Assembly (NCBI GenBank): GCA_039196715.1 | Contig: JBCCUP010000003.1 | Location: forward strand, 34,097 to 98,096 | Direction: 5' to 3' | Source of the DNA: Pseudomonadota bacterium | Lineage (GTDB): Bacteria > Pseudomonadota > Gammaproteobacteria > CALCKW01 | DNA: 64,000 bases | In this document: positions 7,316 to 37,843 of the stretch, in pieces | How the letters are laid out: every line of letters starts with the position of its first letter | Position numbering within the stretch: the first letter of the stretch is position 1 | Translations under genes and position numbers: made by a program | The notes under the pieces: model-generated | Database searches by the model: none | What the model was told of the DNA's origin: nothing | The model's input: only the letters and a program-made list of their open reading frames with translations

Positions 7316-7492
7316 ATGACTCGCCGAAAAGGGCACGCTGTACGCATTGGCAACGTCACGCTGGGTGGTGACGTCCCCGCGGTGGTGCAGTCGATGACCA
7401 ACACGGACACCGCGGACACCCTCGGAGCCGAGGCGTTTCAGCAGCTTGTCGAGGCCTACGTCGAAAACCGCTACGGCCTTGCACGCCACTGA
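7316..7492 (+). pseudogene. ispG: Stub of ispG (HMBPP synthase): only about 34 N-terminal codons recognisable
   Basis: A 58-codon ORF, below the track cutoff: [58 protein letters not shown]. The first 34 aa match the IspG N-terminus including the VQSMTNT.T.D signature. The remaining ~330 aa of the enzyme are absent. Confidence 0.6.
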
Positions 7493-29772: not shown

Positions 29773-30780
29773 ATGAAAGTTCTGATCACCGGCAGCGCCG
29801 GCTTCATCGGCTCACACCTCGCCCACGTGCTGCTCGACCGCGGCGATGAAGTCGTCGGCATCGACAATGTGAATGACTACTACGATCCCGCGTTGAAGGA
29901 AGCCCGGCTCAGCCGGATATTCGGCAAGCCCGGTTTCACCGAGGTTCGTGCGAGTCTCGAGGACCGCGAGGCGGTGGAGCGCTGCTTTGCCGAACACCGG
30001 CCCGACCGCGTGGTTAACCTCGCGGCCCAGGCCGGGGTGCGGTACTCGCTGGAAAACCCGCACGCGTACATCGACGCCAACGTCGTCGGCTTCCTCAACA
30101 TCCTCGAGGGCTGCCGCCACCACGGCGTGGAGCACCTGGTGTACGCCTCGACCAGCAGCGTGTACGGGGCACACACAAACATGCCGTTCTCGGTGCACGA
30201 GCACGTCGACCACCCGGTCAGCCTGTACGCAGCAACCAAGAAATCCAATGAGCTCATGGCCCACACCTACGCTCATCTGTTCGGATTGCCGGTCACGGGC
30301 CTGCGGTTCTTCACCGTCTACGGTCCGTGGGGTCGGCCTGACATGGCGCTGTTCCTGTTCACGCGAAAAATCCTCGCCGGCGAACCGATCGACGTCTTCA
30401 ACTACGGCAAGCACAAACGCGATTTCACCTACGTGGACGACATCGTCGAGGGGGTGAAACGGGCCCTGGACAACGTCGCCACGCCGAACGACGCGTGGCA
30501 GGGTGATGCCCCGGATTCCGCCACCAGCAGCGCGCCCTACCGCATCTACAACATCGGCAACAACAGCCCGGTGGAGCTCGAGCGTTACATTGCCGTGCTC
30601 GAAGACAAGCTCGGTATCGAGGCGAAGCGCAACCTGCTGCCGCTGCAACCGGGCGACGTGCCGGACACCTACGCCGACGTCAGCGACCTGGTGCGGGACG
30701 TCGGCTACAAACCGGACACACCGATCGAAGTCGGTATCGGCAACTTTGTCGAGTGGTACCGCGACTACTATCGGGTCTAG
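29773..30780 (+). CDS. NAD-dependent UDP-uronate 4-epimerase (SDR, Cap1J/TviC-like)
   Basis: [16 protein letters not shown]...[14 protein letters not shown] and YAATKKSNE (YxxxK). Confidence 0.9.
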
Positions 30781-30807
30781 GTCGCCGCCACACCCTGTCA
30801 GCCGGCG

Positions 30808-31137
30808 CTAGCGCGGTGCTGCGAGGCTCAGCAGCACCGCCGCGCGGTCAGGCGCCGACCGCCACAGCGCCTGCTTGGCGTGCGGCGCCAGCGTCTTGAT
30901 CCGACGCTCGACGCTGAGCGCCTCTGCGCGGGTGCGCATCGGGGCCTGCCAGCGCAGCGTCAATCGCGCACAACCGCGTAGACAGCGCGCACCGCGGCCC
31001 GCGGTGTGGGCGGCAAAGCGCTTGCCCACATCGGTCGACACGCCGGTATACAGGTGACCGCGGTCGGTTTCGAGCATGTACACCCACCAGGTTTTCCCCG
31101 CCGGACCAGGCGTGTGTGCGGACTCATGCATGCCCAT
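30808..31137 (-). CDS. GIY-YIG domain protein (UPF0213/YhbQ-like)
   Basis: WWVYMLETDRGHLYTGVSTDVGKRFAAH..G.GA...R...L..RIK. Confidence 0.8.
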   Translation of the reverse strand: MGMHESAHTPGPAGKTWWVYMLETDRGHLYTGVSTDVGKRFAAHTAGRGARCLRGCARLTLRWQAPMRTRAEALSVERRIKTLAPHAKQALWRSAPDRAAVLLSLAAPR

Positions 31138-31198
31138 TGCGAATCATTCTCGTTTAGCCTACCATCGCGCCTAAACAGGTTTTAGTACACTGCCGGTC

Positions 31199-31456
31199 AT
31201 GAGCCAAGACGACACTGCAGCCCACCTGCGCCTCGCCCGGCGCCTGATCCGTGTCTACGCCCACGCCCCGGACAACGACACGGCGAGCGACGTCGCGGAC
31301 GCGTTCGAACGCTGCCTTGATTGCCCGCTGAAGTCCCTGCGCCTGCGGTGCTGCCTGCGTCGCGAAGCAAAGCGCTGGCGCGCACTGAGCGACCGGTGTG
31401 ACAGTGCGCACGACGCGCCGCCTGACGCGCCGCCCCCGCCCCTGACGCTGCACTGA
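31199..31456 (+). CDS. Hypothetical small protein (85 aa)
   Basis: The only support is an open frame with strongly G/C-biased third positions in the gap between GIY-YIG and nagZ. No family recognised, and competing antisense ORFs exist. Confidence 0.3.
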   Translation: MSQDDTAAHLRLARRLIRVYAHAPDNDTASDVADAFERCLDCPLKSLRLRCCLRREAKRWRALSDRCDSAHDAPPDAPPPPLTLH

Positions 31457-31467
31457 CAGCACCGGCG

Positions 31468-32517
31468 CTAGGGCGTCGCCGCGCTCTCCTGCCAGGCACG
31501 GTCAAGCGTCTGGATACGCGCGGCGTCGCCCACGTGAACGTTCGCCGCCCGACTCGCCGAGCGCTGCCGCAGTGCGTCGACGCGCCGCGCGCGGGCGTCC
31601 TGCTCGCCGACATCCCGCAACCCGTCCAACAGCGTGGCGACGGCCCCAGGTCGTTGACAGCTGAGGATCAGATCACAGCCCGCCGCGAGCGCAGCCTCGG
31701 CCGAGGCGACAATGCCTCCGGGCATGGCCGCCGCTGCCATGCTGAGGTCGTCGCTGATGATCAGTCCGGCAAAACCCAATTGCTGCCGCAGGACGCCCTG
31801 CAGCCACCGTCGAGAGAAGCCCACTGGTCGGTCATCGATCGCCGAAAAGCAGACGTGGGCGGGCAACACACCGTCAATTCCCGCGCGCACCAGGGCCTCG
31901 AAGGGCGCCGCATCGCGCTCACGCAGCGTGTCCCAGGGACGGGGGTCCACGGCCTGTGCCGTGTGAGTGTCCTCGACGACCCCACCGTGACCGGGGAAAT
32001 GCTTCGCCACCGCACCGAGTCCGCCGGACTGGATGCCCTGAACGACGGCGGCCGCCAGCGCCGTGGTCACGGCCGGATCCGCCGAGAAGGCGCGGCTGCC
32101 AATCACCGAACCGCCGCCCTGAAGATCGACCACCGGCGCGAGATTGACATCGACACCGACCGCAGCAAGCTCCTGCGCCATGACGCGGCCAACCGCGGCG
32201 GCGGTCGCAATCGCTTCGTCCGGGTCACGGCCGTGGAGCCAACCCAGGGCCGCCGCGGGCGGCAACGCGCTGAAACCGTCGCGAAAGCGTTGCACGCGTC
32301 CACCCTCGTGGTCGACCAACACCAGCGGGTGCACGCCATGGGCGGCACGGCAGTCTGCGATCAGGGCCCGCAGCTGCGCCGGATCCGCGTAATTGTGCCG
32401 AAACAGGATCACCCCGCCGACCAGTGGATGCGCAAGCATGTCGCGCTCCTCCGCGCTCAGTTCGAGCCCGACAGGGTCGAACGCGAGCGGCCCACGCCCA
32501 GCTCGGCGCGCGATCAC
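31468..32517 (-). CDS. nagZ: Beta-N-acetylhexosaminidase NagZ (GH3)
   Basis: GGVILF..N......L......LVLVDHEGGRVQRF...KHFPGHG...ISDDLSM. The GTG start overlaps the ispF stop (GTGA). Confidence 0.92.
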   Translation of the reverse strand: MIARRAGRGPLAFDPVGLELSAEERDMLAHPLVGGVILFRHNYADPAQLRALIADCRAAHGVHPLVLVDHEGGRVQRFRDGFSALPPAAALGWLHGRDPDEAIATAAAVGRVMAQELAAVGVDVNLAPVVDLQGGGSVIGSRAFSADPAVTTALAAAVVQGIQSGGLGAVAKHFPGHGGVVEDTHTAQAVDPRPWDTLRERDAAPFEALVRAGIDGVLPAHVCFSAIDDRPVGFSRRWLQGVLRQQLGFAGLIISDDLSMAAAAMPGGIVASAEAALAAGCDLILSCQRPGAVATLLDGLRDVGEQDARARRVDALRQRSASRAANVHVGDAARIQTLDRAWQESAATP

Positions 32518-32995
32518 GCAGCCGGTTCGCGCAGGGTCACGACGGCAAACGCCGAAATGCCCCCGGCGCGTCCGCTGAAACCGAGCCGGTTGCTGGTGGT
32601 GGCCTTGACAGTGACAGAGCGCCGATCAAGGCCGAGGCCTGCCGCCACGGTCACCGCCATCGTCTCGGTGTGCGGCGCGCGCGTGGGCGCCTTGGCAGCC
32701 ACGGAGACGTCGGCGTTGTGGCATGCCAGGCGACGTCTGCCACGCGGTCGACAACCGAGCGCAACAGCATGCGGCTGTCTGCGCCACGCCACTGCGGATC
32801 GGTGTCGGGCACATGCTGGCTGATGTCACCAAGCGCCGCAGCGCCGAGGACCGCGTCGGCCAGGGCGTGCACGGCTTTGTCACCGTCGCTGTGGGCCACG
32901 AATCCCGGGTGAAACGGCACGCGCACGCCGCAGAGCATCGGGTGATCGCCCGGGCCGAGGGCCTGCACGTCAAAACGGTGTCCTGCGCGAATCAC
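32514..32995 (-). pseudogene. ispF: ispF (MECDP synthase) interrupted by a frameshift
   Basis: N-terminal ~85 codons are in ORF 32651..32995 ([45 protein letters not shown]). The rest is in ORF 32514..32792 (..[15 protein letters not shown]...VTVKATTSNRLGFSGR.GGIS). The frames join with a 1-nt gap near 32731..32740. Confidence 0.8.
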
Positions 32996-33618
32996 CGAGC
33001 GCCTCCTGCGGGTTCGTCGGTTTGATGCTCGAGCATAGACGCTGCCAGCGCGAGGTCGCCGGGCCGCGTGACCGGGATGTTGTCATCCCGGCCCGCCACC
33101 ACCAACACCCGGTGACCGGCCCGTTCCATCGCCGAGGTATCGTCGCTCACCGCCACGCCGTCGCGCCTCGTCAACCCGCCTGATCGTGCCGCGCACGGGC
33201 GACGCGGGCGTACCGCCGTCGGCGTCCGATTCACGCACGGCCTGCAGAAGCCGCTGCACACCGGCGAGCGCGACGCACGGGCACTCGGCGTCGTGCACCA
33301 ACACCCAGCTCGTCGCAGGCTGGTCAGCCAGCGCATCGAGCAGGGCCAACACCGAGCTTGCCCGATCGACGCCACCCGAGACCGTCTCGACCCCCGGCCA
33401 CCGGCGCACAACGGTGCCCGGGTCGTTCGGCGCAAAGGCCACCAGCGTGCGTTCGACGCCGCGGGGCAACGCGTGGTGTGCTCGAGGGTGTGGGCGATGA
33501 CCGTGCTGCCGCGCAACGCGGCGCACTGTTCGGGGCGTTCCCCGCCGGTTCGGGCACCGTGTCCCGCAGCGAGGATCAGCGCGATCACGGGTTCAAGGCG
33601 AGGCGTCGCGTCACTCAC
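32992..33618 (-). pseudogene. ispD: ispD (MEP cytidylyltransferase) with two frame changes and an internal deletion
   Basis: The ends match IspD in the frame of ORF 32992..33618. The middle third (GVERTLVAF..SWVLVHDAECPC..PASPVRGTIRRVDEA) is in the frame of ORF 33083..33526. About 40 residues between the PVR..T and (I/V)(T/S)D(E/D).SA.E blocks are missing. Confidence 0.8.
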
Positions 33619-33892
33619 CCGACGCGGCGGTGTCGTCCAGGAGCTGAAAGAACACTTCGTCTTCGCGGATCATACCGAGTTCGGTGCGGGCGATCTCCTC
33701 GACTGCATCGAGCCCGGATTTGAGATCGTTGACCTCGGCGAACAGCGCGCGATTGCGTTCGACCAGGCGCTGCGTCTCCTGCCGCTTGTCGTCAATCTGG
33801 TCGCGCAGCTGCCACACTTCCTGGACGCTGCCCTGCCCGAACCAAAGCTTGTATTGCAAGCCTGCAATCAGGGCCAGGGCGATGAAGGTCAT
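33611..33892 (-). CDS. ftsB: Cell division protein FtsB
   Basis: MTFIALALIAGLQYKLWFG.GS...........Q...L..RN..L..EV.DLK.G.DA.EE.AR.ELGM. ATG at 33892 (the track start is a TTG six codons upstream). Confidence 0.88.
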   Translation of the reverse strand: MTFIALALIAGLQYKLWFGQGSVQEVWQLRDQIDDKRQETQRLVERNRALFAEVNDLKSGLDAVEEIARTELGMIREDEVFFQLLDDTAASGE

Positions 33893-33934
33893 GGCGCGCA
33901 CGGGCGTCAACTCGTCAGTTCCACTCGGCGCACA

Positions 33935-35248
<1,314 letters not shown>

Positions 35249-35297
35249 TCAGTCAAAGGTGTGGCAGCAGCAGCAAGGTTCGTGACAGGGCAGCGGG

Positions 35298-36149
35298 TCA
35301 CGCCAGGGGATCCGCCAGCAGCGCCGCTTCCGCGAGTGGCCGGGATTTCACCACCGCATCGAGCTCGAGCAGTTGCTCGACCAACGCAGGCATCGCCGCC
35401 AGAGGCCACGCGTTGGGACCGTCGCAGAGTGCCCTGTCCGGATCCGGGTGGGTTTCCATGAATACCCCCGACACACCGGCCGCCACGGCAGCACGCGCCA
35501 ACACCGGTACAAACTGGCGTTCGCCACCGCTCGCGCCGCCGAGGCCGCCCGGCAGCTGCACCGAGTGGGTCGCGTCAAACACCACCGGACACGCGGTGTC
35601 CCGCATGATGGCAAGCGCACGCATGTCAGACACCAGGTTGTTGTAGCCGAAACTCACGCCACGCTCACAGACCATGATCTGCGCGTTGCCCGTCTCGTGC
35701 GCCTTGTCAACCACGTTGCGCATGTCGGCGGGCGCAAGAAACTGCCCTTTCTTGATGTTGACGGGTTTGCCGGTGGCGGCGACACGCCGAATGAAATTGG
35801 TCTGCCGACAGAGGAAGGCCGGTGTCTGCAGCACGTCGACGACACTCGCAACCTCGTCGAGCGGCGTGTCCTCGTGGACGTCCGTGAGCACCGGCAACCC
35901 GGTCTCCTGCCGAACACGCTCGAGAATGCGCAGTCCCTCGGCGACACCCGGCCCGCGGTACGAGGACGCCGACGAGCGGTTCGCCTTGTCAAAACTCGAT
36001 TTGTAGATCAGGTGGCAACCCAGGCGCGCAGCAAGCTCGCGCAGGGTCTCGGCCGTGGAGAGCGCCAGGCTCTCGGATTCGATCACACAGGGCCCGGCAA
36101 TGAAGAACAACGCTTCAGCCAGGCCAACCGGTTTGCCGCACAGCTCCAT
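35298..36149 (-). CDS. kdsA: 2-dehydro-3-deoxyphosphooctonate aldolase (KDO8P synthase)
   Basis: [11 protein letters not shown]....L..A..L...........[16 protein letters not shown]...GL; ATG at 36149 (GTG at 36158 is an alternative). Confidence 0.95.
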
Positions 36150-36154
36150 TGCCC

Positions 36155-37843
<1,689 letters not shown>

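Follow-up and report, generated by a model that had tools for sequence, protein, structure and literature searches.

In this study, we found that ispF in the genome of a gammaproteobacterium is a true pseudogene. A horizontally gained mevalonate (MVA) operon of roseobacter type has very probably displaced the MEP pathway in this lineage, and ispF is one of six relics that this displacement left behind. All six MEP-specific genes (dxr, ispD, ispE, ispF, ispG and ispH) are decaying at their ancestral loci. The coordinates of these genes, of their neighbours and of the MVA operon are given in Table 1.

The window analysed here is the whole stretch of 64,000 nucleotides, which corresponds to C3:34097-98096 of the genome under study (G000). 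The genome is a metagenome bin of 4.95 Mb in 169 contigs, with a completeness of 96%, an estimated contamination of 2.4% and a GC content of 65.7%, and its sequence was detected in marine metagenome runs. Five genomes of the same genus, including G003 and G005, were used as congeners. A protein search also found a relative closer than the congeners, the MAG GCA_039029295.1, whose Eno is 97% identical. Its locus is referred to as L145 and its IspF as P0001. The minus strand of the window carries kdsA, eno, ftsB, ispD, ispF and nagZ in this order, and L145 has the same order, kdsA-eno-ftsB-ispD-ispF-nagZ-GIY-YIG-epimerase. The orthology of ispF was established by position, as the order ftsB-ispD-ispF-nagZ is common to G003, G005 and GCA_039029295.1, in which the genes are intact. 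An intact ispD and ispF pair in this arrangement is present in all five congeners. Numerous long ORFs, up to 429 aa in length, overlap one another or run antisense on both strands of window positions 29800-36200; one of them, 31534-32823 (+), lies opposite nagZ and ispF. Such spurious long ORFs arise because the GC content is 66%, and bare open frames are therefore weak evidence here. IspF read on the wrong strand likewise gave four stop-free translations, open by chance in the high-GC DNA.

Table 1. Positions of the MEP genes and relics, the lesions of ispF, the neighbouring genes and the MVA operon. Positions without a contig prefix are window positions.
Feature	Position	Strand	Basis or description
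ispF relic, whole	32514-32995	-	two ORFs in different frames
ispF N-terminal frame, codons 1 to ~87	32736..32995	-	Pfam YgbB and tblastn with congener IspF
ispF C-terminal frame	32514..32735	-	Pfam YgbB and tblastn
1-nt deletion splitting ispF	32729..32741, best estimate ~32733-32737	-	tblastn and L145 nucleotide alignment
CAG (Gln) replacing Zn-ligand His (E. coli His10)	32963..32965	-	sequence; 18 functional IspF; structures
ispD relic	33019..33684 (approx.)	-	Pfam IspD in three pieces; tblastn frames 2>1>2; L145 alignment
ispG stub	7316..7492	+	TIGR00612 positions 1-33 only, 34 bits; tblastn
dxr relic	C4:32807-33475		residues 4-130 fused in frame to 297-394
ispE relic	C5:78822-79521		residues 71-125 absent, frame change
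ispH relic	C43:20140-20653		residues 91-216 absent, two in-frame stops, frame change
dxs, intact	C66:12171-14051		849 bits; 79% identical to G005
MVA operon, six full-length genes	C2:149092-155383		HMGR, IDI-2, HMGS, MK, PMK, MVD
HMGR, head of operon	C2:149092-150147		Pfam 284 bits
kdsA	35298-36158	-	93.3% identical to L145
eno, intact	33935..35221	-	ORF 428 aa; 97.0% identical to L145, 90.4% to G005
ftsB, intact, upstream neighbour	33611..33910	-	Pfam DivIC 82 bits; 96.9% identical to L145
nagZ, intact, downstream neighbour	31468..32517	-	Pfam Glyco_hydro_3, 251 bits; 78.5% identical to L145

At its GTG start, ispF overlaps with the last part of the ispD relic, and at its TGA stop with the GTG start of nagZ. 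An earlier note, made from the letters of the window alone, had proposed that ispF is split by a 1-nt frameshift. The Pfam halves, tblastn and the alignment with L145 agreed on this point. ORF 32651..32995(-) corresponded to positions 1-90 of the Pfam YgbB profile (97.8-99.8 bits) and ORF 32514..32792(-) to positions 88-154 (48.7-51.3 bits), and no single continuous frame of this gene covered the whole profile. Each congener has a single intact copy of IspF in one frame, scoring 206-222 bits (5/5 genomes). The frame change was located at 32729-32741 by tblastn with five congener IspF queries. In the nucleotide alignment, the sole indel of ispF relative to L145 was a 1-nt deletion at ~32733, and exactly three internal indels separated the two genomes across ispD-ispF, two in ispD and one in ispF. 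After repair of the frame, IspF is 160 aa long, equal in length to P0001, in which the canonical residues are all present. A second ispF or a fused ispDF was sought with the YgbB profile throughout the 4.95-Mb genome. Neither was found, and both matches obtained were the two halves in the window.

The metal ligands of B. subtilis IspF are Asp9, His11 and His43 (PMC5821942). By alignment, these residues are equivalent to Asp8, His10 and His42 of the E. coli protein. In the ispF relic, the GHGFDVH motif is changed to GHRFDVQ, and the metal triad is incomplete: the Asp and the second His remain, and His10 has become Gln. Loss of this Zn ligand was also part of the earlier claim and was borne out. 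The codon at 32965-32963 reads CAG, and the His is invariant in 18/18 functional IspF sequences, including that of the closest relative. These 18 comprised five congeners, 12 sequences from the class and E. coli IspF. A functional ortholog with Gln at the His10 position was sought and none was present among the 18 aligned. The repaired IspF also aligned without gaps, over residues 2-155, to solved IspF structures exemplified by PDB 1GX1, 1JY8, 1JN1 and 5B8F (YgbB, PF02542), which have His at the Gln position. The TSN and GGI blocks named in the earlier note were both read in the sequence, where they replace TSE and GEG. In total, the repaired IspF broke 8/36 invariant columns, compared with 0-3 in leave-one-out controls. 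The eight changes, in relic numbering, are G7R, H11Q, V40K, G59S, F62V, T98S, E136N and E145G. These results verify that ispF has been damaged in two independent ways, by a frameshift and by the loss of a catalytic ligand, as had been suggested. The relic is like members of the IspF family (PF02542) in position, in sequence and, once repaired, in its gap-free alignment, but it differs from them in its broken frame, in the change of a metal-ligand His to Gln and in the alteration of 8/36 invariant columns. It is not an IspF member in the functional sense. Elsewhere in the class, three genomes (G014, G027 and G034) encode full-length but divergent IspF proteins scoring 105-130 bits, compared with ~200-235 in the others, and these may be under relaxed constraint.

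The other MEP genes were searched in G000 and in three congeners with NCBIfam equivalogs, and by tblastn with the proteins of G005. We found that dxr, ispE, ispG, ispH and ispD are intact in the congeners. The ispD gene adjoining ispF, which had also been described as damaged, carries two lesions relative to L145: an insertion of 2 nt at ~33463 and a deletion of 104 nt at ~33164, by which residues ~180-213 were lost. Its PKQY motif is changed to PEQC. The IspD (232 aa) and IspF (160 aa) of GCA_039029295.1 are both intact. Two weak profile matches were considered as a second ispD and rejected; one was a MobA-like NTP transferase (NTP_transf_3 110.7 bits vs IspD 39.7), and the other was GlmU, recognised from its sequence. 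In ispG, ~60 N-terminal and ~20 C-terminal codons are left and ~325 codons are deleted; its TIGR00612 score is 34 bits, compared with 382-387 in the congeners. The dxr relic retains the NADPH domain and the C-terminal domain, and residues 131-296, the catalytic middle domain, are absent. Its ORF (C4:32795-33493) is uninterrupted over 232 aa, with a start that overlaps the cdsA stop and a stop that overlaps the rseP start. The exactly in-frame deletion of 166 codons could be due to chance (1 in 3) or to kept translational coupling of the operon.

The relics outside the window lie among intact core genes, in the orders pyrH-frr-uppS-cdsA-[dxr]-rseP-bamA, lolB-[ispE]-prs and ileS-lspA-[ispH]. The neighbours, uppS excepted, were named from their N-terminal sequences and gene order. 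The uppS gene adjoining the dxr relic is intact (250 bits), and the cell therefore still consumes IPP. DXP feeds the synthesis of thiamine and of pyridoxal (phosphate), and the continuing demand for these products is presumably why dxs was kept. The partners of IspF in the pathway, IspD, IspE, IspG and IspH, are all four wrecked in G000.

We then compared the rate of change of ispF with that of its neighbours. The repaired IspF shares 72.3% identity with the L145 protein. Eno, FtsB, KdsA and the epimerase reach 93-97%, and even the fast-evolving NagZ, at 78.5%, exceeds IspF. Between the functional lineages G003 and G005, the identities are 79.9% for IspF, 83.5% for FtsB and 60.8% for NagZ. Since IspF is well ahead of NagZ in this pair, it is normally by far the better conserved of the two proteins. 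First and second codon-position differences in ispF were ~0.15 between G003 and G005, compared with 0.23-0.28 in the pairs with G000; for nagZ and ftsB, they were alike in all three pairs. Protein change in the ispF relic was raised relative to the neighbouring genes, and the divergence at first and second codon positions was raised on the G000 branch only. Among the six relics, ispF is the least damaged, with one indel despite many substitutions, and it may have been inactivated late or may for some time have been under relaxed but non-zero constraint.

The single indel among many substitutions, together with two halves that are still open frames and the kept start and stop overlaps with the adjoining genes, could also be read as signs that the split ispF still works, by programmed frameshifting, by assembly from two pieces or in a new non-catalytic or moonlighting role. 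However, a slippery or homopolymer sequence was sought at the shift site and none was found, and DNA of 66% GC often has long open frames by chance alone. The Zn ligand is gone and eight invariant positions are altered. Furthermore, the substrate of the enzyme cannot be made with ispD and ispE destroyed, and its product cannot be used with ispG and ispH destroyed. None of the three, a programmed frameshift, an enzyme in two pieces or a moonlighting role, is likely, and a working ispF in any of these forms is very unlikely.

The genome carries a complete MVA operon on another contig. The NCBIfam scores were 375 bits for IDI-2 (cut-off 281), 507 for HMGS (360) and 237 for MVD (171). The two GHMP kinases, of the mevalonate/phosphomevalonate kinase type, scored 114 and 147 bits, both lower than the mevalonate-kinase equivalog cut-off of 163. 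Its gene order is collinear with that in Thalassobius, Cognatishimia, Paracoccus zeaxanthinifaciens and Roseibium, and the proteins are 51-71% identical to theirs over the full length. Identity to the operon of Marinobacterium (Oceanospirillales), a gammaproteobacterium, is 39-58%. In a quick single-gene tree of 81 HMGS sequences, the G000 protein was nested inside a Rhodobacterales clade (SH-aLRT 99), and its terminal branch was long (0.58). No HMGS closer than 70% identity was found among 5.8 billion proteins, and therefore no sampled close relative shares the operon. With identity capped at 70% and a terminal branch of this length, either the donor has yet to be sampled or the transfer dates back further than the comparison implies.

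The genes of the P. zeaxanthinifaciens operon were reportedly named mvaA-idi-hcs-mvk-pmk-mvd by Huembelin and colleagues in 2002. The G000 operon agrees with this operon and those of Rhodobacterales in all six genes and in their order. It differs from them in that its host is a gammaproteobacterium, in that the nearest sequence is just ~70% identical, and in that the inserted block adds a methyltransferase and a low-GC homocysteine S-methyltransferase. The P. zeaxanthinifaciens operon was functional in another host, Rhodobacter sphaeroides (PMC11335630). The homocysteine S-methyltransferase-like gene lies at the far end of the island (C2:156548-157483; L011:16548-17483), with a GC content of 50.7% and a GC3 of 0.52. 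This gene is clearly of foreign origin, and it and the MVA operon probably arrived in separate events. A second HMG-CoA reductase is encoded at C32:14861-16375 (L010:8862-10376). It belongs to the NAD-dependent 'degradative' class II (TIGR00532, 391 bits) and is unlinked to the MVA operon.

The island that carries the operon occupies C2:148423-157560 (9.1 kb), directly downstream of polA. The next gene after the island in G000 is C2:157561-159444; in G005, its orthologue lies immediately beside polA, and C2:148423-157560 was therefore inserted in G000. The polA gene adjoining the operon is 87% identical to that of G005 and 92% to that of G003. The flanks, with TRAP-transporter genes and others upstream and C2:157561-159444 downstream, are 51-94% identical to G005 in conserved order. 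An independent Logan contig of 18,985 nt (depth 13.6) crosses both island junctions without a gap. Short 'joints' in this contig were spurious, with matches of just 20-25 nt. The GC content of the operon is 66.2%, compared with 65.7% for the genome, and composition is thus uninformative on a foreign origin. MVD was absent from the five congener genomes searched (0/5). A survey of 41 genomes of the class showed that the four well-assembled, free-living genomes lacking ispF (G025, G031, G035 and G040) are those that carry MVD, so that ispF and MVD are mutually exclusive across the class.

An alternative is that a co-occurring roseobacter contributed the MVA operon through a binning error or a chimeric assembly and that the organism, having no IPP pathway, scavenges isoprenoids from a host or partner in the manner of Rickettsia. 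The nearest relatives of the operon are indeed Rhodobacterales, the contamination estimate is 2.4%, and Rickettsia parkeri relies on host isoprenoids (PMC6854040). This alternative is nevertheless highly improbable. The operon lies inside a 187-kb contig between flanking genes that on both sides are 76-94% identical to those of G005 and keep the G005 order, the independent 19-kb contig covers both junctions, the GC content of the operon matches that of the genome, and a genome of ~5 Mb shows no sign of reduction. A location of the island on a contaminating contig is ruled out by the synteny and identity of the flanks and by the junction-spanning contig. The operon belongs to this organism.

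The lesions themselves were compared with independent assemblies; the read evidence consists of Logan contigs, not raw reads. A Logan contig of a public marine metagenome run (X1; 2,411 nt, word depth 9.5) spans 32300-33569 with zero indels and three substitutions, and the base lacking from the window at 32725-32745 is missing from this contig as well. Two 151-nt unitigs of a run from a different study (X2) match over the frameshift site of ispD. The indels are not assembly errors, because an independent assembly gives the region without an indel. At 32949-32950 (+), the X1 contig has GG where the window has CC, which changes Gly16 of the relic to Pro (GPGDHP to GPPDHP), and this variant also occurs as the protein P0003. 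The difference has the look of a non-synonymous polymorphism of two bases in a pseudogene and fits neutral drift. Although the draft was assembled from a metagenome at modest read depth (word depth ~9.5), it is extremely improbable that sequencing or assembly introduced the frameshift into an intact and functional ispF, since the independent assembly of 32300-33569 agrees with the draft, repair of the frame leaves Gln at the Zn-ligand His with seven further invariant columns altered, and the five other MEP genes are damaged, with deletions of 55-325 codons, next to intact genes.

As an explanation, we propose that the lineage acquired the 9.1-kb island, with a complete MVA operon of Rhodobacterales type, after its split from the closest sampled relative. 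IPP and DMAPP would from then on have come from mevalonate, and selection on the MEP-specific genes would have lapsed. Under such conditions, ispF would have gained changes at invariant sites, including that of the Zn-ligand His to Gln, and one 1-nt deletion, while larger deletions, frameshifts and stop codons would have built up in the other five MEP genes. dxs would have stayed intact, with DXP still required. The cell would survive without the MEP pathway because of the acquired mevalonate operon elsewhere in its genome. This operon is presumably expressed and presumably supplies the isoprenoids of the cell, and we infer that its acquisition preceded the decay of the MEP genes. A second MEP set in unassembled DNA is, strictly speaking, conceivable.

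Listeria innocua has kept the MVA pathway and lacks the last two MEP genes, and Coxiella and Legionella carry MVA genes. Substitution of MVA for MEP and decay of pseudogenes are both known kinds of event (PMC3847144). A literature search for a full set of MEP relics together with an acquired MVA operon in Gammaproteobacteria found no earlier description. G000 resembles other bacteria in which acquired MVA genes have replaced the MEP pathway in having a complete MVA operon and non-functional MEP-specific steps. In contrast to them, it keeps six recognisable relics at canonical loci, the event took place in one species-level lineage while the other members of the genus are pure MEP users, and the insertion site and the source clade are both identifiable. 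G000 is similar to Rickettsia (PMC6854040) in its lost or pseudogenised MEP genes, but it has a 5-Mb genome and its own complete MVA route, so that scavenging is not required as an explanation. G000 represents an ordinary kind of event and, at the same time, an unusually complete and clean example of pathway displacement.

We regard it as unlikely that the swap from MEP to MVA was adaptive and not neutral. Replacement of MEP by MVA does away with two [4Fe-4S] enzymes that are sensitive to oxygen, IspG and IspH, and with Dxr, on which fosmidomycin acts, and could spare iron or confer resistance to oxidants or antibiotics in surface sea water. If the swap was adaptive, the same roseobacter-type island should recur in other marine Gammaproteobacteria, each time with MEP decay. 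The most thoroughly deleted relic is ispG, an observation that is anecdotal with regard to an adaptive reading.

A single event probably lifted selection from six unlinked genes. The six relics thus offer an internal comparison of pseudogene decay in a bacterium, with lesions that extend from the loss of one nucleotide in ispF to that of ~325 codons in ispG. The practical importance lies in the metabolic annotation of this lineage. Annotation pipelines could miscall G000 as MEP-positive from matches to fragments of ispD, ispF, dxr and ispE, or could miscall the genome as incomplete owing to missing essential genes. The phenotype predicted for the organism is resistance to fosmidomycin and sensitivity to HMG-CoA reductase inhibitors, and dxs would still be needed for vitamins.
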